A stretch of DNA of 64,000 nt. Source: Amphiscolops sp. MND2022. Its lineage: Eukaryota. Location: contig OZ076409.1 of assembly GCA_964187785.1 (NCBI GenBank), forward strand, positions 70,000,001 through 70,064,000. The letters run 5' to 3'. The notes under the pieces are model-generated. The model did not search any database and had not been told where the DNA came from. It saw only the letters and a program-made list of their open reading frames with translations. Below are positions 2,525 to 64,000 of the stretch, piece after piece. Position numbers and translations under genes: made by a program. Position 1 is the stretch's first letter. Each line of letters starts with the position of its first letter.

Positions 2525-21853
<19,329 letters not shown>

Positions 21854-25066: not shown

Positions 25067-25534
25067 AACAAGCCGGGAACGGCCCAAGTCGGCGCCATAT
25101 CTAAGGCTCAAAAATAGCAAAAGGACTTCAAAGTGTCAAGTAGTATCTTCTAGAGTACCCGCGTGAGGCAAAAATTGAAAAAAAATCCGATTTTTTTTGA
25201 GTTTTTTTCGAATTTTTTTGGTATCCGGTAAGTCGCATAGTGCGAAAAAAATGTCAGAGGGGGCCTTTTGCAAACATTAAAAATTTTGCGGAAAAAAGTC
25301 TCACAAAGCCGAAAAAACCTGCACAAAAAATTTTTTGGCCATGGGGGGACTCGAACTTGTCCTTCCGTTTGGCAGACCTCAAAAAATCCTCAAAAAATTA
25401 GAAGCAGAAGAAGCTACATTAGTGTGTCAGTTAGTGGAAGCCAGTTTATAAAGGTTATAAAATCTGTCACTTCGTTGGTCTTGAAAAAAGAAAAGTCAGT
25501 GCTATAGTCTGCGTTTTCTACGAAAGAGCCGACT
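25067..25534 (+). mobile_element. HINE/DINE-1-like family A copy
   Basis: AACAAGCCGGGAACGGCCCAAGTCGGCGCCATATCTAAGG ... CTATAGTCTGCG...GAGCCGACT. Confidence 0.65.
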
Positions 25535-25910
25535 CTTGTTTGGCTCAATTTGAAAAGCTGATGTTTTAGAGCTTCAACGGGGTTTGATTTGAGCTCATGA
25601 CCATTTATCTACCAATTTGATCTGAGTTGTGTGGCGGGCCTTCGACCCTCGCTGTCGCCATACTTTTTTGCAATACGAATGTGGTGGAAAATATCCCTGA
25701 CCATAGCGGGCATGTCGGAAATTTATCAAAGTGGCAACATTTTATCTCGTTTTTTTATACTTTTGAAATTCATGAGTAGACGACCTAGGGAAAATGAATA
25801 ATTTATGCTCTGAAGTTGATGTTGTGCAAAACATCCCAATTTAAAGCTATCAAATTCGATGCACTTCGAGATTTGACAAACCATTCGAAATTTTTTATAC
25901 AACCTTCTAA

Positions 25911-26350
25911 TTAGTCGGCGCTTTATAAGTGAAACGCGACAATACTAGCGGCTTTTTTAATCCACACAAATTGACCAGAATATTTCTTAAAATTCATGGT
26001 GTAAAATTGAACCATTTGGCCTAGCGAACTGAACCAAAAAGTTTTTTTTCCTTTTTTTTCGCGTAACATACAATACCGGGCGAGACTAAAGGGTCGCTCC
26101 TTCCAGATTTTTTTTCGACATTGTGGGACTATTTTTTTTCCATCAAATGATCCCGCTTCACTTTTGTTGATGTTTTGCGACAGAAATAATGAAGAATCCA
26201 AAAGAGTCCCCACTTATGTGCGCCAATTCGGTCCAACTTTCGGGTTTTTCGGGTACTGTAAAAGAGAATACTTGACACTTTGAAGTCCTTACGCTATTTT
26301 CGAGCCTTAGATATGGCGCCGACTTATTCCGTTCCCTATGCCGACTTGTT
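25911..26350 (-). mobile_element. HINE/DINE-1-like family A copy, reverse orientation
   Basis: TTAGTCGGCGCTTT at left end; GAGCCTTAGATATGGCGCCGACTT...CTTGTT at right end. Confidence 0.65.
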
Positions 26351-38132: not shown

Positions 38133-38726
38133 ACAAGCCGGGAACTCCCAAGTCGGCACCATATTAAAGGCACAAAAATAGAAAAAGGACTTTAAAGGGT
38201 CAAGTATTCTCTTTTAGAGTAAATCCTCTGTTGCAATATGTCAAAAAAATGAAGGGGCGACACTGTGAAGATTATAAAAATTTACCAAAAAAGTGTCTCA
38301 CAATGCCGAAAAACTGAAAGGGGGACTCTGATATTTTTCAACATCCATTTTGTTGCAAAATATCAAAAAATTGAAGGGGAGCTCGAAGTAGAAAAAACAT
38401 TTTTCGAAAACAAAGTCTCACAATGCCGAAAAAAACTGAAACGGGGACGTTTTAGTCTCGACCGGTATTGTACGTTCTATCCGAACTTTGAAAACGTTAT
38501 ATCCGAACTTTAAAAACGTCATATACGAACTTTGAAAACGTTATATCCGAACATTGCAAACGTTACATCCGAACGTTGAAACGTTATATTCGAACTAAAA
38601 TCCGGGTTAATCACTCGGCTAAGAAGTTGAACAATTGAACGAAAATGTGGACCGATCGCGTTGAACTGACGAAAACAACTAGCCACTGAGGAGTCGTGCT
38701 TTTTCTTCGAAAACGCCGACTAAAAA
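38133..38726 (+). mobile_element. HINE/DINE-1-like family A copy with an internal 22-bp minisatellite (about 6 x CGTTATATCCGAACTTTGAAAA, 38473-38597)
   Basis: ACAAGCCGGGAACTCCCAAGTCGGCACC ... AAACGCCGACTAAAAA. Confidence 0.65.
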
Positions 38727-39860
38727 TGAGAGTCGAACTCACTTACTTCTCAAGTCCCCTTGCCAAGCCTAGAAATCCTCGTTAAGTAAGCAAGTAAGGT
38801 ACAAGTTTTACAAATGAATTTATAAAACTTATAGAAATGTATCCGTTTGCTGGCCTTAATAAAGTCACTACTATAGTCGGCTTAATCTAACGGAAAGCGC
38901 CGACTGATAATTAAAATATATCATTATTTTGACGAAGAATGCCAAACTGGAAAGCAGAGTTCGAAGCGGAAACATTTTACCTGTGTAAACATTTTACCTC
39001 GGCCGAATCTCAAGACATCAGAAGCAATGACTGTCCATGACCTAAAAGTGTAACCTCAAAGTCAGTTACTCTTTTTTTCACCAAAAATTAACACATGGAA
39101 TATACACATGAAAAATCGTCGAGAGAAAGAGTTTGATGCACTTACGGTTAAATCAATTTTAAAAACAGCCATAAACTTTCATAAAAGTTCATTTATAATG
39201 GAAACTTCCGAACTTGAAAGTTCAACCTCTTCAGTGGCGGAATGAGAAATGAAAGCGTTGTAAAAACGATTAATATAAGATTTAGATTAAATAATAAAAG
39301 GACCAGTAGCACTGCGAGAATTTTCTATGCTGTTTCAAGACCGCTTCAGGAAGAAATCAATTGTTTGATAAAGAAAAAAACGGACTAATTACAAATAAAA
39401 ATACCAAAAGACAATTTCATGTCTTTAGGGTTCCAAAACGGCAATTTCAGCATAAAATTTCACACTTTATCGCCTTGACAAAACCTAATAAAAACAGCAA
39501 TAATTCGGTATTATCATTATTTTCAATGAGAAACAAGCCGGAGCGACCCAAAAAGGCGCCCGCTTAGAGCAAAGTCTTTTTAAAATGAGATTGAAAAATA
39601 TTCAAAAAAATTATTGTGACTACCAAAAAATATCCAAAGAGGGCACCCTTGAAACACGAAAAGCGTTTTTACTGAGAACTGAAAAACTTGACTTTGTGGG
39701 AAACAAAATGGGATTAAGTCACACTGTGCAGAAAAAAACTCAAAGAAGGACTTTTGCTTTTTTACTTTTTCATTTTCTTGAGGGTACGAAAAATGATGAT
39801 TGTAGAAGACCCTGAATTCATTTATTCTCGGAAGAATGTAAAATCAAGATTTACAGAAAG

Positions 39861-42015
39861 TGTCACGACCCGCTCCCGGTCGGGATTTCACCTGCTGTGG
39901 GGGAATACCCAAATTCGCTAGAGGGAGAGGTCACGGAAGACCAGCGGGACACTAAAGTAACAAACACTTTTAAATCTTACCTTTATCTAAACCGCAGCAC
40001 GAGTTAAGTTAAGCGGAAATGTAACGTAAAATATCCAAAAATGTTTTCTGACAAATAGAATTTCCGGTCCAATGTTTTCACATGCAACAGTTTAATTTAC
40101 TTCCGGTTTAACTGTTGAAAATTCCATGACAACCTAAATACTAAAGATGAAAACATTCTTAACATTGGGATCAATTTTTCTCTTTTCCACACTAAAAAGA
40201 AAACATTAAAACATTATCCAATTCCGTGATCCCAACGGAACGCATACAATCTAAAATGAAAAGAACATAAAAACAGTTAAGAAGATTTGTTTTCAGAGTT
40301 TGAAGTAGTTGTAAAAAGTCACTCAAAATACAGTCAAGTAATTTGAATAAACCTTTACAACGTTATGACAGCGTCACTCAAATATCTAAGTTGCTGGTAT
40401 TTCTAACTTACGGACCAATAGCGTTGTAGCTAATACCAGCAAATTTGCGCTCAAGCTAGTTAGAACCATTCCTAATGACGTCATTAAGAATGAATTTAAA
40501 GATGGCGAATTACTCCGAGCTTGCTCCGCTAACAGCTAAGAAAGCTATACTCAATCTTAATATGTACAAAGTGCTTACGGAACAAATTGTAAGCCGAGAA
40601 AATTATAGCCAATCTTAATACGTAGGGAGCATTTACGGAGCGTTTACGGAGTGAATTGTGATAGGTGAAGTTATACCTAATGTTAATACATGTAAGACAA
40701 GCGTGGAAAATTCTAAAACTCAGAAGCTACCCAAACACATTAGGATGTTCCTGAGGTCATGTAGAATTATTTTGAGATATTTAGATTATCATAAGGCTTT
40801 ACTTTTTCCATCCGGATTCTCCCCGTTTAGTGATTAGATTAGAATGTTCGTGCTGTTAGTTAAGATAAAGGTAAATCACTTAATGAAGGAGCTTTGTATT
40901 ATATTTTCGCAAAAGAAGTCACCTAATTTTGCTACGTTGGTATAACGTTGCTGGATGTAATGCAATATTTTGTTATTTTGATTATTCGCTATAAAATCGA
41001 ATCATGTAAAATATTGTTAGATGTTTCTGTCATGTTGCCAGATATTCTTGTTTCTTCAATAATCAGAATTCTTGTTTATGTTTATCACTTTTTCGGCATC
41101 ACTTGTTCCTTGTCAATTATCTCACTTCATTAATCCGAAATTAGTCCGAGGTATTTCCGTAGCAAATTTTGCTTGTCATCATTTTTATAGCGAGTTGAAA
41201 ATTTCATCGCACGCAAACTGAATCATCGTTCACGCCAGCGTGCCTCTCGCGATGAAAATCTAACTAGACTTTTATTTTGCCGCCTTTTCCGTGATTAAAC
41301 CGGAAACGGGACGACTGAACAAAAATGATTTCAACAAGTACTCTGTAAGATTGCCGTAACTAGGAATTTTAAATTATGAACTATTAACTGAAAGGCTGAA
41401 ATGATATGAATGATTAAGCATTTTTTATGAACAAAACGGATTTTAGGGATTCCTAGGAATTTTTAGGTGAGGAACAAATGATGCTGAGAGGGTATATATA
41501 GTTAGAAATCTCATGTAAGAATCAATCAACCCTTTTGTTTCACTGCGATCAATTTTGTTCCGTTATAATAACGAAAACTCATTCTTCGACGAATTCAAAT
41601 ATTTTCCGAAGACCTTGTTCTTGAACTCTGAAAATGACTACTAGAAGCCAAAAGAGAAAAGCAGCTGAAGAGCTCATTTCAACTGAAATAGAAACCCCTC
41701 TACCCGAAAATACTACGGGCGAAAATCCTATAGTAGGTACAAGCAAATCTCCTAAAGTCACTACTGACAGTTTAGAGAATATAAAATCTGTACTGAGGAA
41801 AGAAATCATGTCTGATCTTACTAAAATCTTGGCTGAAAATCAAAAAGAAATGCTAAAACTAATAGCTCCTCCTGTTAAAAAGCAGACTGTCATAGCTGCT
41901 ACCGAAGAAACTGATTCTGAATCCGAAAACATCCCGGAAAATGCAACATCAACACCGATCAAAAATAAAACCACTGCGACTAATCGTAAAATCACCCCGG
42001 TAAATAGTCGTAACA
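39861..42015 (+). repeat. 5' LTR (2155 bp)
   Basis: TG...CA ends with an 8/9 terminal inverted repeat. Contains palindrome TAATGACGTCATTA (40473-40486), a TATA-like TATATATA at ~41493-41500 and the first 382 nt of gag. Confidence 0.97.
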
Positions 42016-43046
42016 TGGTGACAGGAGTCCTCAATGACTCAACGAACCTCGGAAAGAAGAAAACACGACCGCATCGCCCACAAAGTTTGCCACCCAACGA
42101 ACGTCCTTCGACATCACGACTACTCTTCGCTCCCCAACCGGAAATACACCAGCCGCCCCACCTACCCTCAATGCCCAAAGCACTCACTGCATCATTGCCT
42201 GTATTCGATGGTAAGTCAGAAAAATTCGAACTTTTCGAGGACTTATTCCGGAACAACATAAAAATGTACCCACATCTAACAGAAATCCAAAAAACCAACT
42301 ACTTCCATTCGCTACTACGAGGCAATGCACTACAAGCATATTGCAACTTAGACGATGCCAAAAAAGATAACTTAGAGGAGGTAATTACGGCGTTTAAACG
42401 GCGCTTCGGAGACTTTCAATCTTCTGCCAAAGCGAGATGCGAATGGGACTCGCTACATTTTGACCCAACCAAACAAAAATTACATGAATTTTTGGATACA
42501 CTGCAAAAAATGGCTAAAGAAGCGTTCGGCTCTGAAGCACAAAAATTTATAGACAAGGCCATATACGCCAAAATGCCGGACCACGTCAAAAAGATTCTTA
42601 ACCGAGCCTACCTCGAGGACAAACCCTATAACGATATTGTCCTACATCTCGAACGAGAGATGCGCCTTAATGGCCTGGGCGCCCCAGACGAAACAATACT
42701 AGTTCCACTAAACACGGTTGACGTCGCTCCCCCGGAACCGAAAAAAGAGCCCACCCAACGAGGAAACTGCTTCCACTGTGGCAAATACGGCCACTACAAA
42801 GCCCAATGTAGAAAACTCCGCAAAGAACGCTACTACGAGACTAAGGCGCAAAACGGTGCTACCAATACAAATGACCCGCCCAAACCTAAATGTGACACAT
42901 GTGGAAAACTTCACAAAACTGAAAACTGCTGGTACGGAGCTAATGCGGCAAATGACCCCAGAAAGAAACGACATGAATTTGCCATACCTACCAGCCAAAT
43001 CAGTGAACAACCGATCCCCACTGTCGAAATTCAGCCAAAAAACTAA
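41634..43046 (+). CDS. gag: Gag, 470 aa
   Basis: LPVFDGKSEKFELFEDLF capsid-like region; CFHCGKYGHYKAQC knuckle plus a variant CDTCGKLHKTENC. Confidence 0.92.
   Translation: MTTRSQKRKAAEELISTEIETPLPENTTGENPIVGTSKSPKVTTDSLENIKSVLRKEIMSDLTKILAENQKEMLKLIAPPVKKQTVIAATEETDSESENIPENATSTPIKNKTTATNRKITPVNSRNMVTGVLNDSTNLGKKKTRPHRPQSLPPNERPSTSRLLFAPQPEIHQPPHLPSMPKALTASLPVFDGKSEKFELFEDLFRNNIKMYPHLTEIQKTNYFHSLLRGNALQAYCNLDDAKKDNLEEVITAFKRRFGDFQSSAKARCEWDSLHFDPTKQKLHEFLDTLQKMAKEAFGSEAQKFIDKAIYAKMPDHVKKILNRAYLEDKPYNDIVLHLEREMRLNGLGAPDETILVPLNTVDVAPPEPKKEPTQRGNCFHCGKYGHYKAQCRKLRKERYYETKAQNGATNTNDPPKPKCDTCGKLHKTENCWYGANAANDPRKKRHEFAIPTSQISEQPIPTVEIQPKN
42016..42028 (+). promoter_or_regulatory. Primer-binding site, possibly tRNA-Leu
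   Basis: TGGTGACAGGAGT directly follows the LTR-terminal CA and differs at one position from the remembered tRNA-Leu PBS TGGTGTCAGGAGT. tRNA identity unverified. Confidence 0.7.
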
Positions 43047-43080
43047 AAACGCCGCGCCTCCGCTTCGGGGAAACGGTAGA
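43037..43080 (+). promoter_or_regulatory. Predicted -1 ribosomal frameshift site (A AAA AAC plus downstream stem-loop)
   Basis: Heptamer at 43037-43043 lies just before the gag TAA. The -1 frame is open from there into pol. GC-rich GCCG..CTCCG-CTT-CGGGG..CGGT hairpin starts 7 nt downstream. Confidence 0.8.
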
Positions 43081-46000
43081 CGCAAGGGCGTACACAATAG
43101 AAGACCCCCCAAATCGCTACGAAGAAGACTTCATGACCGAATGCAACGAAGAACCGACACAGGATTGGCAACGTCGTTGGAACGTCGGCATGATACTTAG
43201 ACACAATGCACGACACCCAGAAGACCCAACACCACTACCCCAATGGATAACAGAATCACCCGATAACTACGCGACACTAAAAAGACCCTTACCAGAATCA
43301 AAGACCGAACGCATTTACATATATGATAGAGACTATAGATGTGATCCTTGGGATGAACCAACCATCTATGACACAAACAAACTCTCTTTTAAGATCCAGG
43401 TTTCAAATCCTCAAGCTCAAGTCACCGAGAGTACAACCCTACCAACACCTTTGTCACCAATCCTAAAAAAGACAACACAGTCCTCGCCAACACCCGTCAC
43501 CACCACGTCCACACCAATAGATGCAGAGAATATTATCTGCATTGAGGATAAAACAATATGGTCACAACAAGCAAAAGAACAACGCGGAGTAGCCGATCAA
43601 ACAGTATCACCCCCAACAACAGCATCCGAATTGGCAACCCAGAACAACAATCATGAAGACGACGAAGTAACGGAATGCCCACAACAACTGCCATACGATC
43701 TCAACATCATAAAAGAATTCATACAACATGATAAAGACGACGACTACATTCCGTTAATGTCGGCAATTACCCTCAAAAAGAAGAAAAGAATGCTCTTTAT
43801 TCCTCTCGACTTTGAAAACACTAGAATTGATGCATTAGTCGACTCGGGAGCCTACATCAACGTCATCAGCGAAAGAGACGCAGACAAGATACAAACTGAA
43901 GCCAACGCAACCATAATCGCGAAGGCACCTCCACCCCCTTTCAAGATACAATATGCCAACACAGAACTCGAAAAAGCCCGTGCAACATACACAATGCAGT
44001 TCAAAATCGGTAACTACGCGTTCGAGGAGACTTTCATCACCATGACCAAAACATCTTACCCAATCATCGGCCTGGCATTCCTCCGGAAACATTCCGCAAT
44101 CCTAGATACCGCACAAGGAACAATAGACTTTCCTAAAATACAAATCACTCTAGCCCTAAAAGATGAAAGACAAAAGTGCAACCCCAAACCCATCACTATC
44201 AAGACGGAAGAAAAACACACCATACCAGCCCAAGCCACACGGATCATCCACGCTTCCATCACCACAAGCAATGACCACTCAATAACTGGGACAGTCCAAC
44301 CTTTGCCACAGTTCGACGAAAATGCAAAACTCATAGTAGCCCCAGCAATAACAACAGCCCGAGACAAACGAGTCGCGATAAAAATAGCGAACACCACAGA
44401 CTTCCCCTACACAGTAACGCCACATACGAAACTAGCAGAATTACAAATACTGAAACCCGAAGAAACGAAATTGATACGAGCAGTAGACATAGCAGCCCTC
44501 AATCTACTCACCGAACACGACGATGTTGTTGCGTACGTTAATGCACTGATGCAAGTTGATTCGTCAGAACAAACAGAAGAGAAATTCTGGTTCCCAACTC
44601 CCGAAAATCCCGGAGATGAATCGGAACACACACCCATCCAACAACGCATTCTACGAGAACTACGCGAACTACAAAGATTAGAAGAACTGGACCCCAAACA
44701 AGACGAAAAATCCAGAACACAATTCCTCTCGCTATTCAAATAGAATAATTCACTCATAACGGGAGAAGACCGTGAAAACCTAGAGTCCACCCTAGTCGAA
44801 TTCAATGACATTTTTGCACGTCACCGACTGGACATCGGAATGAACAACCAGTTCAAGGTATGCCTAACTCCCAAAAACGACAAACCGGTATATACACAGA
44901 GTCTCCCTGTACCCATCAACCTCAAAGACGACCTCACAGTAGAATTGGCACTGATGCACAAATACGGGATCATCACAACCCTCCCATTCTCGAAATATGC
45001 CAGCCCCATCTTCGCGCAACGCAAACCCAACGGCAAACTACGGCTCCTAGTGGACTTACGGAAGATCAACGCCCTCATCTCAGATGACTACATAAACAAC
45101 AACCACCCCATCAGCACCCTCTCAGATGCCGCACAACACCTAGCGGGGAAGCAGCTGTTCTGCAAACTAGATTGATCACAAGCCTATCACTGCCTCCAAA
45201 TGGCAGATCAAAGGTCAGTAGAACTCCTTGCATTTAATTTTGCTAGTAGAACGTTTGCCTATCGTAGGCTAGCCCAAGGACTTAGTAGAGCCTTGTCAGC
45301 CTTTTCGAGCTTCATGCGGGAATATCTTGACACCGTCATCAAAGCAGACCAGTGTGCCCAATACGTGGACGACATTGGAATCGCCGCCAACACAACGGAA
45401 CAACTCATTAAGAACATCAGAGCAGTCTTCAAATGCATCCGCAAGGCAGGAGTAAAACTCACAATTGAAAAATGCCACTTCGGTGTCACCCAAATCGAAT
45501 TCCTGGGAAGAACCATCACACCTCACGGAGTAGCACCGCAAGACCACAAAATCACCAGTTTCTTGTCAAAAATCAGATTTCCCCGGTCAAAGAAACAAGT
45601 CCAGAAATACATTGGATTCATCAACTACTACAGAAACTACATACCAAGACTGTCCGAAAAAATGATTGGAATGTACGAACTCCTAAAAGCAGATGCCAAA
45701 ATCACCATAACTGAAGAACTAGTCGACAACTTCAAAGCGATTAACGCGAGCCTAGCGGAAGCCTGCGGAATTGCACTCAGACAGCCGATTGCAGGAAAAC
45801 AATATGTACTGATGACGGATGCTAGCTTCCGAGCATCCGGATATGCGCTCATGATCGAAGAAAACGACGACAAAAAACTACTCTCCAAAAGAAAAACCTT
45901 CGCCCCTGTAGCTTTCGGATCACGCGTGTTCTCTCCGTCACAACTGAAGATGTCGATATACTGTAAAGAATTCCTCGCAATATATCATGCATTCCTTGAA

Positions 46001-48252
46001 TATAGTCACATTCTCTGGGAAACAACACTACCTACACTAGTACTGACAGACAACAGATCAGTAACGAGATTTTTCCAGACGAAAACAACGCCACCCGCTC
46101 TCTGGAATGCCTGCGACTATGTACTCCAGTTCAAATTCCGCATCATGCACGTAGCTGGCTCGCAAAATACAGCAGCCGACTTCCTGTCTCGCCTCGAATT
46201 AACTCCAAAAGAGAGAATCCAAATCAAATTGCGAGACGACATCATAACGGCACCTATCGAGGTTAACCTACAGTCTACAGATGTTGCAGACGAAGAACAA
46301 CTCTTTTTCCTGCCAAACGAAGAAGAGGAATCAGAACAAGAAATTTTCGCCAGGAAAGCCCTTAGCAAACAACGAGCAATAGACGAAAAGGAACAACAAA
46401 ACTTAACAACGGAAGTCACAGAAACAGTGCACATACCTCTCAACTCAGCAGTATACGCCTTTGGAGCCATCAAGGAAAACGCCCGCATCCGCAACGAACA
46501 GGACTCGGACCCGATATTGAAAGCATTGAAACTACGGCTGCTTCACGAAGAGTACGACAAACACCTTCTCAAGACCGAATCCAGAGGACGAAACCTACTA
46601 CGTCACGAAGAAAGAATAATAGTCAAAGACGGAGTACTCATGCGTAAATACTACGGAGAAGATGGCACAGTAACACATCACCAAATCCTCATACCGAAAC
46701 ACATAGTACCAGAACTCCTATCGACGCTACATGGAAAAATGAACAAACACCCAGGAATAACCAAAATGATTCAGGAAAGCCGAGCAAAGTACTACTATCC
46801 GGGACTAGCGCGGACAATTAGAGCCTGGGTAATCAACTGCCCAGATTGCATAGCCAACAAACGAATCGACACGCGCCAAATACGTCCTAAAATGCTGAGT
46901 AATACAGAATTCACATTCGGACCAGAAGATTGTCTAGAAGTCGATATTCTACCCAATCTACCCTCATCAAATGGCTACAAACACATCATAACCATGATGG
47001 ACGTTTTCTCCCGTTATTTGTTCGCATACCCCACTCAAGACATGACTGCCAGAACAGTCGGACGATGCATAATTGACGTTATGACACGTCACTGTTATCT
47101 GCCTACAGTGATTCTGACTGATAAAGGATCACAATTCCGATCAGATGTCGTGAACCAAATAGCACAAACACTAGACATACGGATTAGCCACGCATCGACG
47201 AAACATGCACAAACGATTGGAATACTCGAGAGAACGCATGCATCCCTAAAGACTTCCCTCAAAATATCAACGGGAGAACGCCGTTCGATGTGGCACAAAT
47301 ACGTACAAATCGCAGTAATGAACTACAACACTAGTTACCACGAAAGCCTAGGATAAAACCAACAACCGTATTTCACGGACGCATTCCGTACAACATTCTG
47401 GATATCAAGCTGGGACTCAAGCCAGAATGGAAAAAAGACGCTAACGAAGACCTTACGGACGAATTACAAAAGCAAATCGCTGAAATCCACCAGTCAGCCA
47501 AGGACAACCTCATGCAATCATATTTGAAGTATAAGCGATATCATGATAAAAAAGCGACAGCAACGCCATTGAAAATCAATGACTATTGCTACGTCCTGAA
47601 CCCGAAGGCTGTTAACCAGTCAATGAAATTCGCTTTCAAAGATTGCATTTGGACAGGACCATATATAGTGGTCAAAGTCCTTTCCAATAACAATTACGTC
47701 GTAAGACGGACGGGAACAAGATATACGCAAACCCTCCATAGAATTCGCCTAAGGCTATACGCGCCCAATCAACGAGTACCTGACGTAACAGTCAAAGTGG
47801 AAGATCAACTTCCAGATCCCGAGGTTAAAACAACCCATGATGATTGGTACGCGCAAGATTGGGAAACCGAATTCGGAGAAGTTCTGTTCGGCAACTCATC
47901 GGAAAGAGAAAATGAAGAAGCTAACATCACAGAGCTGCCAGCGGAAGACGCAAATACAACGGAGCAAGAAACAGTTATAACAACTGCAGACGAAACTTCA
48001 ATAGCAGAACAAATTCCACCCGGAAATGAAACGTCGCTCAACCTAGATGTCAGCGATAACCCTTTCATAATGACCCCACCGCCTACGGAAAGCCCTCCCA
48101 TACCGCCTACACTCCCGCCTATAGTTGTCGGATACAACCCGAGAAAAGCAGGAAGATACAACTTACGTCCTAACCCTAAACCTAATGCACATCCCGATTT
48201 CCGGATGCTTGATGCAGTCACAACAGAAGAAATACCTCAAACTCAATATTGA
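43043..48252 (+). pseudogene. pol: pol (protease, RT, RNase H, integrase with GPY/F motif), disrupted
   Basis: LVDSGA, QYVDD, MTDAS, HHCC zinc finger, ILTDKGSQF, WTGPY. In-frame stops at 44741-44743 (TAG) and 45173-45175 (TGA), plus a stop and 1-nt frameshift at ~47354-47358. Confidence 0.93.
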
Positions 48253-48425
48253 ATGAAAACACTCAACGGGCTGAACCGAACCGGAGTAGCTACGTTAAAT
48301 TTTTGCATCAGATCTCTAAAACTACGTAAAACAAAAGAAAGCTACGCATTAGCCAAAGATACAACAGCAGATAAAACAATATACAAAGGAAACTATCCAT
48401 CGATGAAATAGCATCACAGTTTACA

Positions 48426-51400
48426 TCACTTATAAGAAGGCTTTTTCAATTTATGGACTACGTCCGGATCTTTATCATCCTTCTTGCTCCCTTTCTTCGG
48501 CTTCTTCACTCCTCTGGCACCACCCTTCTGCGGTACTACAGACACTTCACGTGTCGGCTTAGGTCTCTTCGCATCAGAAGTGGTCGCAGCACTCTTTCCA
48601 ATAGATAAACCACAAGAAAGCTTAGATGACCCCGAACGCCCACTCCCAGCATCACTACCAGCAGTTCTAGTACATTGGTCCATACGAGCCAGCCGGTTGG
48701 TCTTATTACAATCAACATAATGCGCCTCGTACTCTTTCCGGCGCTGCAACAACAATTTGTGACACGACTCATTGTGGGAAGAAACAAACGAGTCATACGT
48801 TGGGCCCACGAAATCCTTCCACAAATTGATCTCACCACACACAAAGAAAACCCCAGCTTCATCTACAGCGGCTCGAACTGCATCCATAGTCTGACCGGTG
48901 AAGAAACGTTGATGACAGTAACCAGGACTTAACACATATGACTGCACCAACTTGATACAATTCTGCAACGCGTCCTCACGCAGTGAACTACCACTGAGGC
49001 TGATAGATACAGATGGATAAACCACATCCAGGGTCTCGATCGTCAAACAACAGAGCTTAAAGATACGCATCAAACGCTCTCGAGACTGAAAACTAAAATC
49101 GCCCAACAAATACTCCACTATATCTTTGACACTGCTAGCAGACTGCCCGGAACTACGGTGCTGACCCCGCCTCTCAATCACAGAACTGCTAAACTCGTCC
49201 ACAGCACAGCGGGACTCCTCAGCAGTTATCAAATTACACGTCTTCAATAAACGGCACAAATCTGCAAACAAGGCAAATACACCATGGTCGTCGCCTTCGA
49301 ACAAGATCTCAGGGCAGAAACTGTATAGACAACGTGACACTCCCGATGTCACACTCACACTACCAACAATCACGACGATCAACCTGTCCAGAAACTGTCG
49401 ACATCGTGAACGAAACTCTGGCAGCTCTCCGGTCGTTCTAACCATCAAAGTTTTTCCGAAGTCATCATTTGCCAAGAAAGCGTCTGGAGCCACTACGGGA
49501 AAAGATGAAATCGCCTCACCCGACATATATTTTTCCCACTCGTGAATGCCCGGAAGAGTTCCAACAGCGCGAGTCTTCAGCAAAAGGCAATACACGAAAT
49601 TACAGAGCTCTCCGTATGAATGAAAACTGTAATCTCTACGGCTCTGTCGCAACTTCGTGAAATTGTTATAGACTAAAACACAAATGACACTAACCAACTG
49701 CTACGACTCCAAGACATACTCACAATTCAACGAAAACGCAAAGGCTACAAGAACAATCCATCAGGTGAATCTTCAGTCAACACAAGCACAATCAATCATC
49801 ACGAATATCAAACGGAACTCAACAGCCCTTACTCACATGTATCAAGTATCAGACGTGAAAGCCCGAGACGATGAAAAAACATCTCATCAGCAATGATGTT
49901 CCAATCAGTGCCTCTCAGCTAAAAACAACAAAATCACCGCCATCAAAATAACGAAACACACAATACCAAGAGAATTTATGAATATCCAGCTTACTTTATC
50001 AGCAGTATCTTTAGCATGAGGAAGCCCGGTACAACGAATATACGGCTTTATCGATGACCACAGCTCGATCAACTCGCACACTAAATCGCGAAGATCTTCA
50101 AAAGCCACAACTCCTTTGCTGATACACCGGCGCAAGACAACCTTATCCTCCGTCCACTCCTCGTACATGGCACTCTTCATCCGAACCACAATGTATTCAA
50201 CCAATGTGACCAACTCCACCATCCCGAACACATCCTGATGCGCTTGGCGAAAGCACTGGAGAAAGACATCGCTGCTGAAAGTGGACACAACCACAAATTG
50301 GCGATTATCGGCCCGGCTTTCACACAGCTCTCGGAATAACAACGGACTACAACCACGGATCGAAATTGGCAGAGGCCCATCAGTCAAACTACACAGGACC
50401 CGAGCAAGAGGAACCAACTCAGCATCAGGGAATTTCTGGTCCAACGGCTGTTGATCCACGCAGATCCTTTTGAAATTCTCATCCTCCCAGTAGACTACGT
50501 AGCAACACTCGAGATCATCGCGCTTTACAAACTCCACACTGTATTCACGTGACAAAGACACATTGCCCAGAACGGCACGCAATACCCGCGGAGCGAGACC
50601 CTGACAAAGGAGGGCCTAAAACACATACCAAATAAGCCAATTTGCTGATACAAACACTAAAGCAGTCAGTCATACAATCAGAGGAAAGATAAAAATACAA
50701 AACGAAACAACCATATACCAGAATATATATGGTATACCATATACCATATACCAACCAAAATACAGTCTACGAAACAACCATAAACCAGACTAACCACAGT
50801 CTCAGAGCGGCTCCAATTCATCGAGAATTGGGGCTCCCGGAAGCCCAACGAAGACGTGAAGTGGCCCCAGAGATGTCGCAACAAGACAAAGTCGCCACCC
50901 CTGCCAACCAGTTCACAAACACTTGACACTAGGGTCATCAAAGGCACTTTTGAGTTTGGATGTGAATGCTTCAACAAATCCTCAGGGAAAGGAAATTCCA
51001 CACCAAGATCTTCAAAAGGCCACGCACGATAGTCAGCCAACTGTGTCTCGGTGAGAATCATTGGCTCCAGAATCTTGTTATACACAGGCAGATCCATATG
51101 TACCCTGTACGTAACATCACGCCGCCAATGTCCAACTGACCCGAAATGACGGATGATCTCGGACACCCCGTGAGCACGTATGGCAACGTCTCGCTTGCAC
51201 ATCCGACAGAAGAAGTACTCATCTGACCCACTTTTGGCACCAGTCACGAAGTCATTGAATGTAGGATGTTCGCCAAGCATCCGTCGACTCAGAAGATTCC
51301 GCTTACTGTACTTGCGCTTCTTAGGACTCAACTTTGCGGACAGATCCCGAAATCCTATAACAACACCATGAAAAATATCAAGTAAAGGCCACCACCATAG

Positions 51401-52396
51401 AGATAACTAATACTACACAACGCCCACCATACAATAAGAAGAACTTACCACTTTGGATAGCCTCAGAAGTGCGTGTTTCCACCTCGTTCACTAACTGGCG
51501 ACCCAATGCTACCCAATCCTGCGGCCCAAACGTAAAACCTCCGGTGTCATCTTGACCTATCAATACACAATCATAAACAATAAGAGAAAAAAAACACCTC
51601 TCCCCCATTACACAAATACAAAGGCCAACTAACTCAACCACTCCTTCAGATCCGCAGCCAGTTCAACGCCAAAAGAACTCTCCTCCACTCTCTTGGCACA
51701 CGTAGGACTGACTCCAAAGCTAACGGACATACCCCGTGATACACCAGCCTTCCCTGCAAACGACACCCAAAGCGTAAAAACCACCCACCACAAAACAAAC
51801 ACCAAGAAAATTATATCAACCATGTTAACCTTTCTTCCTGGCGGGGGTAACAGTCCCACCTCCATGGGACTCAATACTGGAATCATCCCCATCCGAATCA
51901 TCGTCGGAGTCTCCAGCATCTACTGTAGGCACACTTTTGGACCCACTAGCCTCACCCTCAGGAGGGAGAACATTTACTGCCGGAGAAGATGCAAGTTCAG
52001 CCTGTCCGAGAGTAGACGTTAATATGTCGTTGATAACAGCATTGGGAATAACAGGCAAGATAGAGGAAACTGCGGGCAACAATGATCCAGAACAAGACGT
52101 CACTACTGCGGTAGTTGCAGAAGCAGCAACAACAGACGTTGTATCAGGTTGAGCTACTGAAAATCAGAATCTGGATTCAGACGCGTCAGAGTTACGGGTA
52201 GGACTATAAAGGCTGATCACCAAAATAACAAGTCCCAATACCCATGGAAATCAGAAAGATTTTACCAACCTGAAGTAGCCCGAACAAACTCTATGTCAGA
52301 CACGCCCAATTCGCACTCAGAATGTCCATAAACCGTTTCGTTCCCACTGATGAAACCACCAGGTGGAATGGGGGGACGCACACTTTCTTCATCCAT
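48426..52396 (-). CDS. Antisense 8-exon accessory gene inside the Gypsy element; 1063-aa hAT-transposase-like protein with zinc finger, predicted catalytically inactive
   Basis: Minus-strand exons 52396-52270, 52156-51830, 51753-51634, 51556-51449, 51354-50795, 50615-49995, 49918-49837, 49672-48426 total 3192 nt. All seven introns are GT-AG (76-179 nt) and phase-compatible, joining separate track ORFs into one stop-free frame. Contains SPKKRK NLS and a CRMC...H-x5-H finger. Confidence 0.8.
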
Positions 52397-52857
52397 GATT
52401 CAACGGCAATCTAAAAATAAAAAGAAACGATCAGGAAAGAGAAGATTACGCGAGGTGAACGCAAACCCCCTAAAGGAACGAAACGTCCCCAAAATCCTAC
52501 GGGCGAATCAAAACCTACAAGGAGATCCTCAAAAGACTTAAAGAAAAATCATTTGGAAATTACGAAGTATAAACGTAGTTCCCCTAAAGAAGCATCAATG
52601 ACGTCATACGGACAATCTACGGAAAAGAATTGGTGACGCCATGATGAAGTTCAAAATTAGAAACTTTATTTATATCGGTTCAGCCAATCACAGCGCAGAT
52701 GGAAACGAAACGTTTCCGAAGAAAAACGAACCGGAATAAAAGAAAAATAACAGCCAATAGGAATGCAGGAAAATTACAAACGAAAAGAAAATTGACCTTT
52801 TCATTTGCTGCATCCCAAACGTGAAGTTAAGTTAGCTGAAATCTTCAGAATTCAAAA
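52397..52857. promoter_or_regulatory. Candidate bidirectional internal promoter
   Basis: TGACGTCA at 52599-52606, ATTGG at 52629-52633, CAGCCAAT at 52681-52688 and 52751-52758, lying between divergent start codons 52396(-) and 52858(+). Confidence 0.5.
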
Positions 52858-53586
52858 ATGAGCAATTACGAACTCGTAATTGATATCTCTTCTGATGAAG
52901 AAGAAAACGAAGTCAGGCAAAGCACACCCATCAAAACCCTTCCACTAAATGGGATCACAGTTCTGAACCTCTCCGAAGCCTCCTTAGAAGCTACAAAAGG
53001 CAGCGCAGAAGAGATGATGGACTCTATCAATAGTCTAAATTTATCCGGCATCTCAGCGTCTACGTTTGAGACTATCGGTTCACCAAGAAAAATAAACTTC
53101 GGCACTACAAGCCCTGGAGAAGCTTTCATAGTGGAAGGGCATAGTACTGAAACGTCTGAAGAAAGCTACTTTGAAGAGCCGGATACTCCCCGTCAACTAC
53201 CGCCGCTGCAGCCCGCCCCAGTGTTACGAGACGTGTCTAATAAAGAGCTTCAGTACAACGGACCGCCTGCAAAAGCCGACAAACTCGACGACTTGATGGA
53301 GTCAGCAGTAGAAGAAATCGAAAACGCATACGGCATAGATCTACAAAGCAGACTAGAATACAGCCCGTTGTGCGGACGTGGGACGAGATTCACCTCAGCC
53401 AGGCTGGTAAGGACGCGTAAGCAACCCGTGCTCATCACGAGAGAGATTCCTAATTGCCCCAGACCGTGGGAAACAGGCTATAGAGGCGCCCTGTCACGAC
53501 CCGCACCCGGTCGGGATTTCACCTGCTGTGGGGGAATACCCAAATTCGCTAGAGGGAGAGGTCACGGAAGACCAGCGGGACACTAA
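52858..53586 (+). CDS. Accessory ORF of unknown function, 242 aa, acidic and Ser/Thr-rich, running 95 nt into the 3' LTR
   Basis: Intact ORF with AAAAATGA start context and N-terminal LVIDISSDEEE. No signal peptide or TM helix apparent. Confidence 0.65.
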   Translation: MSNYELVIDISSDEEENEVRQSTPIKTLPLNGITVLNLSEASLEATKGSAEEMMDSINSLNLSGISASTFETIGSPRKINFGTTSPGEAFIVEGHSTETSEESYFEEPDTPRQLPPLQPAPVLRDVSNKELQYNGPPAKADKLDDLMESAVEEIENAYGIDLQSRLEYSPLCGRGTRFTSARLVRTRKQPVLITREIPNCPRPWETGYRGALSRPAPGRDFTCCGGIPKFARGRGHGRPAGH

Positions 53587-55641
53587 AGTAACAAACACTT
53601 TTAAATCTTACTTTTATCTAAACCGCAGCACGAGTTAAGTTAAGCGGAAATGTAACGTAAAATATCCAAAAATGTTTTCTGACAAATAGAATTTCCGGTC
53701 CAATGTTTTCACATGCAACAGTTTAATTTACTTCCGGTTTAACTGTTGAAAATTCCATGACAATCTAAATACTAAAGATGAAAACATTCTTAACATTGGG
53801 ATCAATTTTTCTCCTTTCCACACTAAAAAGAAAACATTAAAACATTATCCAATTCCGTGATCCCAACGGAACGCATACAATCTAAAATGAAAAGAACATA
53901 AAAACAGTTAAGAAGATTTGTTTTCAGAGTTTGAAGTAGTTGTAAAAAGTCACTCAAAATACAGTCAAGTAATTTGAATAAACCTTTACAACGTTATGAC
54001 AGCGTCACTCAAATATCTAAGTTGCTGGTATTTCTAACTTACGGACCAATAGCGTTGTAGCTAATACCAGCAAATTTGCGCTCAAGCTAGTTAGAACCAT
54101 TCCTAATGACGTCATTAAGAATGAATTTAAAGATGGCGAATTACTCCGAGCTTGCTCCGCTAACAGCTAAGAAAGCTATACTCAATCTTAATATGTACAA
54201 AGTGCTTACGGAACAAATTGTAAGCCGAGAAAATTATAGCCAATCTTAATACGTAGGGAGCATTTACGGAGCGTTTACGGAGTGAATTGTGATAGGTGAA
54301 GTTATACCTAATGTTAATACATGTAAGACAAGCGTGGAAAATTCTAAAACTCAGAAGCTACCCAAATACATTAGGATGTTCCTGAGGTCATGTAGAATTA
54401 TTTTGAGATATTTAGATTGTCATAAGGCTTTACTTTTTCCATCCGGATTCTCCCCGTTTAGTGATTAGAATGTTCGTGCTGTTAGTTAAGATAAAGGTAA
54501 ATCACTTAATGAAGGAGCTTTGTATTATATTTTCGCAAAAGAAGTCACCTAATTTTGCTACGTTGGTATAACGTTGCTGGATGTAATGCAATATTTTGTT
54601 ATTTTGATTATTCGCTATAAAATCGAATCATGTAAAATATTGTTAGATGTTTCTGTCATGTTGCCAGATATTCTTGTTTCTTCAATAATCAGAATTCTTG
54701 TTTATGTTTATCACTTTTTCGGCATCACTTGTTCCTTGTCAAATATCTCACTTCATTAATCCGAAATTAGTCCGAGGTATTTCCGTAGCAAATTTTGCTT
54801 GTCATCATTTTTATAGCGAGTTGAAAATTTCATCGCACGCAAACTGAATCATCGTTCACGCCAGCGTGCCTCTCGCGATGAAAATCTAACTAGACTTTTA
54901 TTTTGCCGCCTTTTCCGTGATTAAACCGGAAACGGGACGACTGAACAAAAATGATTTCAACAAGTACTCTGTAAGATTGCCGTAACTAGGAATTTTAAAT
55001 TATGAACAATTAACTGAAAGGCTGAAATGATATGAATGATTAAGCATTTTTTATGAACAAAACGGATTTTAGGGATTCCTAGGAATTTTTAGGTGAGGAA
55101 CAAATGATGCTGAGAGGGTATATATAGTTAGAAATCTCATGTAAGAATCAATCAACCCTTTTGTTTCACTGCGATCAATTTTGTTCCGTTATAATAACGA
55201 AAACTCATTCTTCGACGAATTCAAATATTTTCCGAAGACCTTGTTCTTGAACTCTGAAAATGACTACTAGAAGCCAAAAGAGAAAAGCAGCTGAAGAGCT
55301 CATTTCAACTGAAATAGAAACCCCTCTACCCGAAAATACTACGGGCGAAAATCCTATAGTAGGTACAAGCAAATCTCCTAAAGTCACTACTGACAGTTTA
55401 GAGAATATAAAATCTGTACTGAGGAAAGAAATCATGTCTGATCTTACTAAAATCTTGGCTGAAAATCAAAAAGAAATGCTAAAACTAATAGCTCCTCCTG
55501 TTAAAAAGCAGACTGTCATAGCTGCTACCGAAGAAACTGATTCTGAATCCGAAAACATCCCGGAAAATGCAACATCAACACCGATCAAAAATAAAACCAC
55601 TGCGACTAATCGTAAAATCACCCCGGTAAATAGTCGTAACA
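53492..55641 (+). repeat. 3' LTR (2150 bp)
   Basis: Matches the 5' LTR. By eye, 8 substitutions and one 5-bp indel (about 99.6% identity). Confidence 0.97.
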
Positions 55642-55889
55642 GAAAGTTGTGCAGTGCCACTTTGCTTCTTTTTTAAAGCACGCTAAGTTTACTATCACCC
55701 TGAAAATTGTTCTCAGTAACCGCAGAATTGCGTGGGTTCAATAGGTAAGTTTCAAAATGTACTGAGAAGAAATTTTTAATTATGATCTTTAATTATCATC
55801 TCATTCAGTGCTATAACATTGTTGCAATAAATTTTGTTCATTGTATAATCTATAAATTCCTTCCACAAGGTATTGGATGTGAAGTGTCT

Positions 55890-60242: not shown

Positions 60243-63200
60243 TCATTCAGGAATGGGAAGGACGGGAGAGAGCTTGACGATGGGACGGGTGAGGTTACCA
60301 GATGATGTCTTTACTTCCGCTGACCGAGCGACGGAATCGGCGCCGTAGTTTAACTTGACCACACAGGCCAGTGGATAGTGTCCTCTCGGTGTGGTGGGCT
60401 CCACTATCCAGACTAGATCTCCCGTCTTGAGTTCGCGGTCAGAGGGAGTCATCCATTTAGAACGGCGGTTGAGAGTCGGAACGTACTCCTTAAGCCATCG
60501 GTTCCAAATTGCGTCTGAATACGCTTGAGCTCGAAGGTACCGCTTTCGATGATCTATTTCAGCCTGAAAAAGGGTCGGTAATGTAGAAATAGGAGTTCCC
60601 AACAAGAAATGGTTCGGTGTAAGTGCATCCAGGTCCGAAGCATCAGTGCTTGCGGCAGTTATTGGTCGAGCATTGAGGCATTGTTCCACAAGGCAGAACG
60701 TTGTCGACAAAATTTCGTCGGTCAGGCGGCGGTTCCCCAATACCGCGTAAAAAACGTGTTTGAAACTACGGACTACGCGTTCCCAGACACCTCCATGGTG
60801 GGGACCACTCGGTGGGTTAAACTTCCACTTAATTCGTTTCTTCAAGAGTGCGTCGTTGAGGACTTGCTGGTTCCAATTGTTGATGTTGTACATGAGTCCT
60901 TTTTCGCTGGCTACGAAGTTTGTGCCGTTGTCAGACCAAATTACGGATGGGGTGCCCCGGTGGGCGCAAAACCTTTCAATCCCCATCACGCAGCTACTCG
61001 TGTCCATGCTCGGGACCACCTCGAAGTGGACAGCACGAGTCGTGAGGCAGGTAAAAAGAAAGCCCCATCTTTTCTCCGTAGATCGTTTGACCGATACAAA
61101 GAAAGGTCCGAAATATTCAATTCCCGTGTTCGAAAACGGGGTTCTTTGAAAGCGAGTCTTTCACGAGTAGATCTGACATCATGGGAGTCAATGTTTCGGC
61201 TCTTCGTTTTCGACAGGTTACGCATCGGGAAACAATTGTTCTCAGGGTGGTTCTCAGTTTGACTACAGCAAATCTCTGCTGCACCAAAGCTCGTAGGTAG
61301 TCGACACCCTGGTGGTAATGGCTTTTGTGCAGATGCTCTAGAAGAAGCTGCACCAATGGATGACGACCATCTAGAACAAAGGGATGTTTAACATCAAATG
61401 TGGCAACGTTTAGTTGTTTCGTGCGCCCAGAAGCTCTTATCAGACCATTCGGTCCAATGAAGCGGGAAAATTGCGCTATTTTGGAGGTTCTGTTGAGTGG
61501 CGAGGATTTCAGTAGATTAATTTTCTCTGAAGGAAATGATTCGGATTGGGCGCTATGAAACAGTCGTTGTTCGGCATGTTCCAGTTCCGCCGGGTCGGTG
61601 ATTGCAGCAGAAGAGCACCTGTAGAAGCAGTTCTTTTTCAATAGTCGTAACATGTAGGCTACAATGCGCAGGAGTTTCTCGTATGAGCAATACTTCTGCC
61701 ACTCGAAAGTTTGTGCAATTGTAGACTGAGTTGTGGATACCATCACAGTTGCCGATTCTGTTACTGGTGACGGACTGGAATCTTTTGGCTTCTTTAGCTT
61801 CCATCGGAAGTCTTCGGATAGCTCAAAGGGCCATTGGGGCGTTTTCAGGAACTCAGGTCCTTTCAACCAACTGCTCTCCACTAGAGCGTTTGCTGACAGA
61901 CCTCTGGTGCCTGCATCTGCTGGGTTATTGCTCGATTGAACGTAATTCCACTCATCTGTCGTAGTTAGCTCCAAGATCTCCGCCACACGGTTATCTACGA
62001 AGACTGGTTGCTTTTCGAGGGAGTGAGTCCATTGTAGGACAGTGGTGCTGTCGGACCACATGGAAGTCCTGCTTATGTCGAGCGTCAGAGCCTTTTGGAC
62101 GTCCTTCCTTAGTCTTGCTGCAAGCAACGAGGCTTGGAGCTCGAGTTTTGGTATGGTCAAGGCTTTCATGGGAGCCACTCTGGCTTTTCCAAACACGAAT
62201 GCGAGTTTTGTTTGCGGGCAACTGTTTCCACTGATAACGTTTCCTCGGAGGAAGACGACCGCACTGAACACTTCTTGTGAACTATCACCAAAGATGTGAA
62301 GTTCTAGTGCTTCGACTTTTCCTTGGAAGTAGGTTCGCGCGATTGCGATGTCACTAAGCGCTGGTAACTCTTGGGTCCAGTCGATGAACTTGGTTACAAT
62401 ATCTGGCGGTAAGTCGTCATCCCACTGCTGCCCACTTAGTTTCCAGATATCTTTGAGTAGCAGGCGCGCTTTGACAGTATACGGTGCAAGTAGCCCAATG
62501 GGATCGTATACTGAAGAGACAAGGCTCAGAACTACCCTTTGTGTAACAGCTGGTTTGATATCAGGGTTTGTACCGCGGCTGACTACAAGGGTATCGGTAG
62601 CGTGGTTCCATTTCAACTCAAGCACATGGGACAATTCTTCACCACTAGGGAATTCTTTCACTTCGGTTGCTGGCGTCGGATCGGTTTCCAGTTGCGCAGG
62701 GATTGATGGTACGTTTGACACGAACTTGGTTAACTTGAAGCCTCCCAGCGAAAGCAGTTTCACCAGGTCCTCAGCTTTGCGTGTCGCTTCTTCAACCGTC
62801 GGGCACGACTCTAGGTAGTCATCCATGTAAAAATTACTGAGAACACGTTGAGCGGCTTCCGGGAACGTTGACTGGTTGTCCGTTGCTGTTCTCCTCAAAG
62901 CATAGTTCGCACAAGTGGGGGAGTCTTTAGATCCAAAGATATGACGGACATAATGGAACACAGCAACATCGGATGCTGGATCTTCGCGCCACAGGAAACG
63001 AAGTGACGGCCTGTCTTCTGGAATTACTCCAACTTGTAGGAACATTCCTTCAATGTCTGCCGACACGGCATACGGGTATTGTCGGAATCGAATCAAAATG
63101 TGGATGAGACTCTGCAACAGGTCTGGTCCAGTCAAGAGTGAATTGTTCGAGGAATGGCCTTGGAACTTGGCGGCGCCGTTCAACACTCGTCGAACTTTAC

Positions 63201-64000
63201 CCGGTTTGTGTGGATCAACGACCGGATGGTGCGGAAGCTACCACTCGCGGGCATTACTCACTTTGAAACAATCGGCTTTGTTAACGTTCACTATGTAACC
63301 TTTGGAGTGATCTTCATGGATGGTTTTGGAGTATCGCTCTTTCAACTCAGCATCTTTCCCGAGACGACGTTCCAGGGACTTCAGCTGGACTAGAGCCGAA
63401 AAGTAGTTATTCGGCAAACTACTCTCGTCCTCAGCCCATAGCATACCCACTTGGTATTGCGACTCATCGTGGTATGTCGTTCGTTCAAGTAACTTTTCCG
63501 CTCTCGCGTCGGCAGTGGAACGGGGGTCTACTTGTTTGAATGCTCCGTATGATTCCATTTCATACCAGCTGCGGAGTTGGTCGCCTAGTTCGGAATCGGC
63601 ATCTTTGTTGGACGTGACAGCCTTGAAACACGTTGAAAACAATCCAGAGGTCGATGGAAGAGGTCCACTCAGTACCCAGCCCAACGGGAGACGGACGGCA
63701 ACTGGAGCTTTCTTACTGTCGGATTCGAAGTACTCCAGTGGGAGGATAAAGTGAAACACGTCCTGACCCAGGATCATGTCGACGTCAGCGTAGCTGTATT
63801 TGTTCAAAGATATTGGTTCTAGGTGAGGATACTTGGTTTTCAGGTGGTCAACTTCGATGGTGTCGGTACGCTAAGGTTTTCTCTCACGTATGGTTTGATG
63901 GCAAAGGTTGAGCAAGAGCCACTCGAATGAACGGGTGTCAACTTGAGCTCGACCATTTGCGTTTCAACAACTTGATGGGAGTTGATCCCATGTACGGTCA
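60243..64000 (-). mobile_element. BEL/Pao LTR retrotransposon pol (PR-RT-RH-IN), disrupted, running off the window end
   Basis: ILGQD, LLTGPDL, ADIEGMFLQV, FYMDDYL, IFGDSS, TIPKLELQA, NPADAGTRG, WSDNGTNF, LTPNHFL. Stop at 63238-63240 and frameshifts near 61140-61170. Confidence 0.93.

Follow-up and report, generated by a model that had tools for sequence, protein, structure and literature searches.

Does a retrotransposon that has already supplied itself with gag and pol also carry, on the opposite strand, a gene taken from a DNA transposon, and what would it use that gene for? This question is raised by the 4 kb that follow pol in a Ty3/Gypsy element of Amphiscolops sp. MND2022 (contig OZ076409.1), at positions 48426-52396 of the window, that is, of the whole stretch of 64 kb that was analysed. 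The window lies within a 1.07-Gb genome with 13 large contigs, and that genome was searched for relatives. A sequence-only reading had proposed that the segment is an intron-containing antisense gene for a catalytically dead hAT transposase. Our analysis points to an accessory gene of the Gypsy family, apparently under strong selection and hAT-derived according to structure models, whose product has lost the catalytic residues.

The antisense gene and its Gypsy host

The joining of minus-strand fragments through seven GT-AG introns into one frame of 1063 amino acids (aa), as originally proposed, was confirmed. A minus-strand GT..AG intron exists for every one of the seven donor/length pairs, a single ordered combination is possible, and the eight predicted exons (52396-52270, 52156-51830, 51753-51634, 51556-51449, 51354-50795, 50615-49995, 49918-49837 and 49672-48426) give 3192 nt that encode 1063 aa plus a stop, with no internal stop. 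The unspliced region contains 59, 91 and 33 stops across the three frames. The introns have the phases 1,1,1,1,0,0,1 and a high T content (39-51%). The protein features noted at the outset (an acidic low-complexity N-terminus, SPKKRK, a finger and a Lys-rich tail) could all be mapped onto the exons, and we take SPKKRK to be a basic motif of the nuclear localization signal (NLS) type. Antisense introns escape removal from the genomic RNA and are hence copied at each retrotransposition.

The accessory gene resides within an element of 15.8 kb (39861-55641), delimited by a boundary and domain search of the window. That its host is a Gypsy element was borne out by paired long terminal repeats (LTRs) with TG..CA ends, a 5-bp target-site duplication (TSD), GAAAG, at 39856-39860 and 55642-55646, a primer-binding site, and the domain order aspartyl protease, reverse transcriptase (RT), RNase H and integrase in pol. 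The two LTRs, each of ~2150 bp, are 99.4% identical (8 substitutions and one 5-bp indel), and the copy is recent. The features of the element are the following:

39861-42015, plus strand: 5' LTR, 2155 bp, TG..CA ends (LTR comparison)
41625-43046, plus strand: gag frame (DUF1759, E 3e-9; Retrotrans_gag and zf-CCHC below cut-off)
43007-48252, plus strand: pol with protease, RT, RNase H, integrase and a p58-like C-terminus, broken in the window copy
48426-49672, minus strand: predicted exon 8, with helical insertion domain, degenerate third catalytic region, C-terminal helices and Lys-rich tail
49837-49918, minus strand: predicted exon 7, 82 nt
49995-50615, minus strand: predicted exon 6, 621 nt, with RNase H-like strands; first two catalytic Asp and CxxH replaced
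50795-51354, minus strand: predicted exon 5, with SPKKRK (aa 237), BED-like C2H2 finger (aa 277-303) and helical dimerization-like domain
51449-52396, minus strand: predicted exons 1-4, with low-complexity Ser/Asp-rich N-terminus and four introns
52397-52857, no strand: 460-bp gap between divergent start codons, with TGACGTCA, three CCAAT and a TACGGA pair 11 bp apart (52607/52618)
52858-53586, plus strand: small acidic open reading frame (ORF) of 242 aa extending into the 3' LTR, N-terminal LVIDISSDE, no Pfam match
53492-55641, plus strand: 3' LTR with five TACGGA sites (LTR comparison, motif count)

The gag frame starts ~380 bp inside the 5' LTR and crosses the primer-binding site at 42016; because of this start, the 3' LTR repeats the beginning of gag. 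An LTR from a distant lineage (L065) likewise has an ORF start close to its end. In the window copy, two in-frame stops (ending at 44743 and 45175) and a frame change near 47335-47356 interrupt pol, and the antisense gene is intact despite this. Considering the three lesions and an LTR difference of ~0.4-0.6%, this copy may have been mobilized in trans with its accessory gene intact.

When exon 8 was used as the query, at least 102 scored genome matches were obtained (43-100% identity), 78 of those 102 without a stop; further queries gave at least 100, 54, 135, 146 and 140 matches, in lists that overlap. We examined 51 loci that had been picked for carrying the gene (L001-L041, L001 being the window, L048-L052 and L060-L064), and in all of them it lies antisense and tail-to-tail with a Gypsy integrase. 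In the near clade, pol is mostly 88-100% identical to that of the window; the value falls to 67% in the L048 lineage and to 50-57% in two deep lineages, where the accessory exons share only 14-33% identity with those of the window. Three homologous proteins (P0092, P0143 and P0149) have best matches of only 39, 35 and 35% in this genome and may come from other species. No related locus was confirmed in the viral and metagenome contig collections. Pairs of matches 13.6 kb apart, a spacing equal to the element length minus one LTR, were observed at C1:90758096 and 90771690 and at C11:34834768 and 34848384, and are probably head-to-tail elements with a common LTR. At three other places (C5:67566642-67573396, C3:85616525-85622320 and C3:70052786-70056512) exon 8 is repeated 2-3 times with a spacing of 2.4-4.5 kb, which reads as a local tandem duplication of the accessory region.

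Conservation of splice sites and a ratio of nonsynonymous to synonymous substitutions (dN/dS) below 1 had been suggested as checks on the family, and both were borne out. Introns 5, 6 and 7 keep identical codon positions and their GT and AG ends in all nine of the most divergent near-clade copies (L031-L039, with exon 8 41-48% identical to the window; exon 7 of L033 and L039 was read by eye), and exon 6 measures 621 nt in all nine, whereas the lengths and sequences of the introns vary. Introns 1-4 are found again in both of the other subfamilies that were checked (L057 and L058, the exon-3 acceptor of L058 being off register when extrapolated). The splice sites are preserved at 42-50% protein identity; among L001-L030, a site is lost or shifted in a few copies (L005, L025, L029 and L030). 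Judged by these comparisons, the conservation of the splice architecture appears to exceed chance.

The lineage of L040, L041 and the protein P0175, which is identical to a Gypsy-borne locus of this genome, has no introns 5-7. In a domain tree without the five most distant loci, which the finger pattern excluded, 10 intron-poor rows form a clade (100/97). Since this clade nests among rows with read-through of intron 5, the loss of introns 5-7 is a derived state. Such 3' intron loss would be the expected outcome of recombination with reverse-transcribed spliced mRNA and is an indirect hint that spliced RNA exists. Intron 5 (50616-50794) is 179 nt long in the window and 122 nt in copies 97% identical to it, and it has short TATGG-type repeats; no variant-specific motif stood out in the intron comparison.

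The dN/dS values were calculated by the Nei-Gojobori method between subfamilies, most wider pairs being saturated, and rows with stops were omitted from the alignments (L038 for exon 8; L022, L027 and L028 for exon 6). Exon 6 gave 0.057-0.071 in the six scorable between-subfamily pairs, and the core of exon 8 gave 0.06-0.11 in three pairs and 0.18-0.29 in three others; for the Lys-rich basic tail the range was 0.2-1.2. Integrase is similar, with 0.06-0.17 in 13 of 14 pairs. With a dN/dS of ~0.06, the accessory gene appears to be under strong purifying selection. This value, together with the Gypsy-borne position in 51 of 51 loci, agrees with the proposal that the gene is cargo of the retrotransposon and not a nested DNA transposon. 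The nested case had been pictured as a single copy bounded by its own terminal inverted repeats (TIRs) and an 8-bp TSD; around the gene in the window copy we found no pair of TIRs beyond chance 9-11-mers and none of the 8-bp TSD of hAT elements, the TSD being the ordinary 5 bp of the Gypsy.

Relationship of the protein to hAT transposases

A profile search with exon 5 returned 405 proteins, including P0090, an uninterrupted homolog of 890 aa that is collinear with the exon-6 and exon-8 profiles (98.3% and 99.1%). P0090 led to 30 long relatives and is 49% identical to P0175, and exons 5, 6 and 8 of the window match P0175-type loci in order (E 1e-19 to 1e-25). The AlphaFold model of P0175, built on a 52-row alignment that included the window exon peptides, reached a predicted local distance difference test score (pLDDT) of 80.4 and a predicted template modelling score (pTM) of 0.71, and presents a Hermes-like overall fold with an RNase H-like core split by a helical insertion. 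The comparison with hAT structures by Foldseek, which had been recommended with the original proposal, placed Hermes at ranks 1-10 in the PDB (best E 9.5e-5, probability 1.0; first unrelated match 4e-2). An independent structural aligner (VIA) also gave Hermes first, with Z 12.7, a root-mean-square deviation of 5.2 and 402 aligned residues (197-699 of the model on 133-609 of Hermes), the next match having 6.7. In a viral structure library, the sole match under 1e-3 was a hAT-annotated viral protein.

The searches with sequence profiles behaved differently. No hAT family (PF05699, DUF4371, DUF659) was matched by Pfam with the window exon pieces and the homologs, no match was found among PDB sequences searched with four family profiles or in the ESM Atlas with exon 6, a search for homologs of exon 8 of greater length found none, and hhalign against six genuine Ac/Hermes-type hAT transposases of this genome gave a probability of 0.1%. 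The proposed hAT origin stands on the structural side (Hermes at the top of two PDB searches and a hAT viral protein in a third library) and not on that of sequence profiles; on balance, the models support a hAT-derived protein. Its assignment to a ZNF862-type subfamily could not be confirmed: the ESM Atlas offered weak leads of 0.81-0.85, with 8 of the 10 best named matches in one hAT-related clan, and DUF4371 had no match in this genome, though the control search was equally silent. Sequence-profile annotation misses such accessory genes completely. The C2H2 finger (Cx2C..H..H) is intact in 16 of 16 copies from all lineages; Pfam zf-BED was matched in one of 22 homologs, below cut-off (E 0.013), and the BED label is weak.

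The claim of catalytic death was upheld by the alignment, in which the DDE triad and CxxH are replaced in every aligned row, the columns having been placed by the motifs of six intact hAT transposases and by predicted strands, not by residue-level superposition. The first Asp column holds R/K/Q/H/L/V or E and D in 0 of 33 rows; the window has Val444 at the end of strand 1, and Glu is found in 7 of 9 near-clade rows, never Asp. In the second column, where the window has Arg501 at the end of strand 4, the residues are R/L/E/V/Q/C/M/H, with D in 0 of 34 rows. The third catalytic region (~aa 859-870) is a predicted loop without Glu. CxxH and ExxFS are absent from the aligned rows (35 rows in the case of ExxFS). 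The distant lineage is without the triad as well, which places the loss of catalysis before the divergence of the lineages. We looked for a source family with the triad intact among the most distant matches, without success. The accessory protein, although hAT-derived, is no active hAT transposase, and the segment does not qualify as a hAT element.

It should be mentioned that the genome also has 150 scored matches to PF05699, and that six hAT transposase frames (L042-L047), 496-697 aa long, were recovered whose catalytic motifs are intact and which are not closely related to the accessory gene. They show that ordinary Ac/Hermes-type elements are present in this genome.

Paired repeats, exchange between backbones and possible roles

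The gap at 52397-52857 is probably a bidirectional promoter; of nine other gaps, all have TGACGT-type sites and seven have CCAAT. The small ORF on its other side conserves LVIDISSDE, which resembles a SUMO-interacting motif (SIM), in 8 of 8 near-clade copies (the frame is broken in L034), with a remainder that is ~33% identical. Its counterpart in the most distant lineage (L066, reverse strand from 1209) has IIDVSSDSGDE, and that of L040/L041 has no clear match to an LVIDISSDE-like motif.

In the eight near-clade LTRs, TACGGA is present 5-8 times per LTR (~0.6 expected; 0 of 200 shuffles each), 550-900 bp inside the LTR and away from its ends. No enrichment of TACGGA was found in pol, the accessory gene or the flank. 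Pairs of ACGG 11 bp apart occur 1-4 times per near-clade LTR and are absent from 39.9 kb of flank; in the window, TACGGA pairs with this spacing lie at 54265/54276 in the 3' LTR and at 40634/40645 in the 5' LTR. The LTR beside L040 (L065) has no TACGGA and three GGAC-core pairs (GGGACAACC-type) 12 bp apart, and the DNA just upstream of L062 (L066) has five [AG]CGG pairs 10 bp apart. The finger residues differ between the near clade and these two distant lineages with their different repeat pairs. Paired short repeats of its own kind, in the LTR or the promoter, seem to mark each of the three deep lineages; these candidate binding sites resemble the subterminal repeats of hAT elements.

The accessory gene and the element that carries it do not share one history. 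Between the window and L032, integrase dS is 0.047, whereas the accessory proteins are 51-55% identical with saturated dS; between the window and L002, accessory dS is 0-0.02 and integrase dS 0.31. L031, L032 and L049 have 93-95% of the LTR and 92-98% of the integrase DNA in common and only 53-58% of exon 6, and the window and L014 are 85% identical in exon 6 and 67% in the LTR. The accessory gene thus recombines against its backbone.

Among the three functions put forward in the sequence-only reading, a DNA-binding transactivator or an anti-silencing factor would fit these data best, the third being integration targeting. We give an even chance to a nuclear, oligomeric, sequence-specific DNA-binding self-regulator that keeps the element expressed, as an activator or as an anti-silencer. 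The antisense gene would be transcribed from its own internal promoter and then spliced. By the comparisons above, the DDE triad was lost before the lineage split, and purifying selection retained the zinc finger, the dimerization domain and the fold as a whole. The paired short repeats of LTR and promoter would be the targets of the protein, much as subterminal repeats are those of hAT transposases, and the binding would keep the element transcribed via activation or blocked host silencing. More speculatively, the divergent SIM-bearing small protein could be a partner acting on SUMO-dependent silencing. Precedents for these steps are given in the available portions of several papers, to which our statements here and below refer: in Hermes, the BED domains make contact with subterminal repeats (PMC10368747), Ac attaches to AAACGG repeats (PMC3260210), a short motif in repeated copies allows VANC proteins to lift the silencing of their own family (PMC6719617), and the antisense gene of Grande, with a promoter to itself, yields a product that is nuclear (PMC7264820). 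A bolder version, which we hold only tentatively, is a two-gene swappable anti-silencing cassette in which the dead hAT protein binds lineage-specific LTR pairs and is partnered by the SUMO-interacting small protein, as an animal retrotransposon counterpart of VANC.

Several points weigh against a self-regulator. The fold comes from the distant family member P0175 and not from the window protein, and exon 8 of the window folded alone gave a low-confidence model (pLDDT 48.5) without meaningful structural match. A regulator has no obvious need for conserved RNase H and insertion domains in full. Repeated motifs are commonplace in LTRs and possibly are sites of host factors; TACGGA was chosen by eye after viewing the sequence, the eight LTRs are related and hence not independent, and each distant lineage is represented by one LTR or promoter stretch only. 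The TACGGA pair of the promoter gap is not preserved in nine other gaps, which have 0-1 site each. Furthermore, the near-clade gene variant does not track the LTR in L031, L032 and L049, and a strict pairing of one variant with one target is excluded because these LTRs are alike at 53-58% identity of exon 6. One motif common to the near clade would account for the swapping of variants among its backbones.

The swapping is also what a factor of host conflict or of competition between elements would produce, acting through protein contacts (as decoy or antagonist of a silencing or restriction protein, or in self/non-self exclusion), with old variants kept by balancing selection. At least 10 variants at 48-68% identity sit on nearly the same backbone, the opposite patterns of L032 and L002 speak for this reading, the fold is conserved as a whole, and the partner ORF is SIM-like. 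However, the core shows no positive selection (dN/dS 0.06) and the finger is invariant, and template switching between co-packaged genomes also yields swapping if the variants are interchangeable. We regard such a factor as unlikely, although better placed than the alternatives that follow.

A self-limiting repressor that binds the same repeats and dampens the element for copy-number control, possibly with antisense RNA, would share the candidate-site evidence with the self-regulator, and antisense transcripts can form double-stranded RNA with the genomic RNA (PMC7264820). Nevertheless, the family is very abundant and recently active, and frequent loss of a repressor is expected, yet most exon-8 matches listed (78 of 102) are without a stop; this role seems improbable to us. 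We consider slightly less probable still an integration cofactor that binds LTR DNA in the pre-integration complex or target chromatin and aids nuclear entry or site choice. A transposase fold is built for holding DNA ends, the protein has basic NLS-like motifs, and the gene adjoins integrase in every locus examined. But a separate antisense transcription unit has no obvious route into particles, the enriched repeats lie well inside the LTR and not at its ends, the gene swaps freely with respect to integrase, and the TSD is the ordinary 5 bp instead of the 8 bp of hAT. Finally, the gene might be a hAT element nested in the Gypsy, or a neutral passenger of no use to the retrotransposon. This reading, conceivable in a genome with many real hAT elements, is refuted for this family by the 51 of 51 Gypsy-borne loci in the same place and orientation, the absence of TIRs from the window copy, the dN/dS of 0.06, the conserved splice sites and the lack of any member with a DDE triad, and we see hardly any chance for it.

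Other elements were observed in the window. A broken BEL/Pao retrotransposon, of a group that is mainly metazoan, lies at 60243-63870 on the minus strand (Peptidase_A17, E 1.6e-39; DUF5641; rve). An interspersed repeat, abundant and marked by a conserved end of ~45 bp and by internal units of ~120-130 bp with GGGGGACCCTTT, has nine copies in the 64 kb (at 1081, 3567, 15628, 25067, 28537, 29838, 38131, 56249 and 58666). There are also elements like miniature inverted-repeat transposable elements, with nested or long inverted ends (31647-32065 and 25075-26336), a 22-bp tandem array (38456-38600), and a perfect 87-bp inverted repeat with a 1-nt spacer (8145-8319), which is either a hairpin element or an assembly artefact.

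Comparison with known systems

The accessory protein has the domain order of Hermes and other hAT transposases (PDB 8edg, 4d1q), namely finger, dimerization domain, RNase H-like core split by a helical insertion, and C-terminal helices. Unlike them, it is without DDE, CxxH and ERxFS, at 8-12% identity, and its gene has no TIRs or 8-bp TSD; it has a long acidic N-terminus and a basic tail, and is carried by an LTR element.

The plant elements Grande, RIRE2 and Retand and the fungal element Boty are known for antisense ORFs that lie between pol and the 3' LTR (PMC7264820), with origin and function given as unknown and with no similarity to other transposable elements (TEs) (PMC7264820, PMC11963269). 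The Retand antisense ORF has a Pfam domain named transposase 28 (TRP28, PF04195), restricted to flowering plants (PMC11963269). The present gene resembles the Retand/Grande type as an antisense accessory gene in Gypsy (51 of 51 loci, selected by the gene). It differs in its seven introns and hAT fold in place of TRP28; Pfam searches of the accessory protein and its homologs gave no match to PF04195, and the word intron does not appear in the available portion of PMC11963269.

VANC of the Arabidopsis VANDAL elements, which are Mutator-like elements (MULEs), is likewise a TE-encoded accessory protein associated with a short motif repeated in the non-coding DNA of the element (PMC6719617), and is a partial parallel to the present gene (PMC6719617, PMC12859917). 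However, VANC is family-specific and belongs to DNA transposons, whereas here variants swap among backbones with one motif, and anti-silencing is a candidate role. The plant mobile domain is a silencing-linked accessory domain common to Gypsy and MULE elements (PMC5418596), but it is not a transposase core and is found in plants only. In bdelloid rotifers, Gypsy-like elements have captured non-env genes that are shared between TE types, the ORF3s for a DEDDy exonuclease and a GDSL esterase (PMC5408684); in these the catalytic residues are intact, and the genes are shared among retroelements and not derived from DNA transposons, the words transposase and intron being absent from the available portion of that paper. 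The TE-encoded anti-silencing examples in the available portion of PMC6719617 are all from plants. No LTR element with a hAT-derived gene was found in the literature searched, to which Repbase, where an entry is possible, and subscription papers did not belong; the available portions of PMC6431247 and PMC13524379 contain no such case.

Antisense accessory ORFs were already known; one traced to a DNA transposase was not found in the literature searched. The origin can be traced here to a class II transposase that was disarmed and has stayed under strong selection in hundreds of copies, spread over several deep lineages of a class I element. More such hidden genes are possible in other large genomes. 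Should the protein activate its LTR or free it from silencing, it would be relevant to the question how LTR elements attain very high copy numbers in animal genomes, and one TE class would have domesticated another, including the binding logic of a DNA transposase, in an animal retrotransposon clade. The ZBED family and DAYSLEEPER are host-domesticated regulators derived from hAT elements, that is, dead or repurposed hAT proteins that bind DNA. In those cases it was the host that domesticated the protein, at single loci; for the present gene, the domesticator would be another TE.

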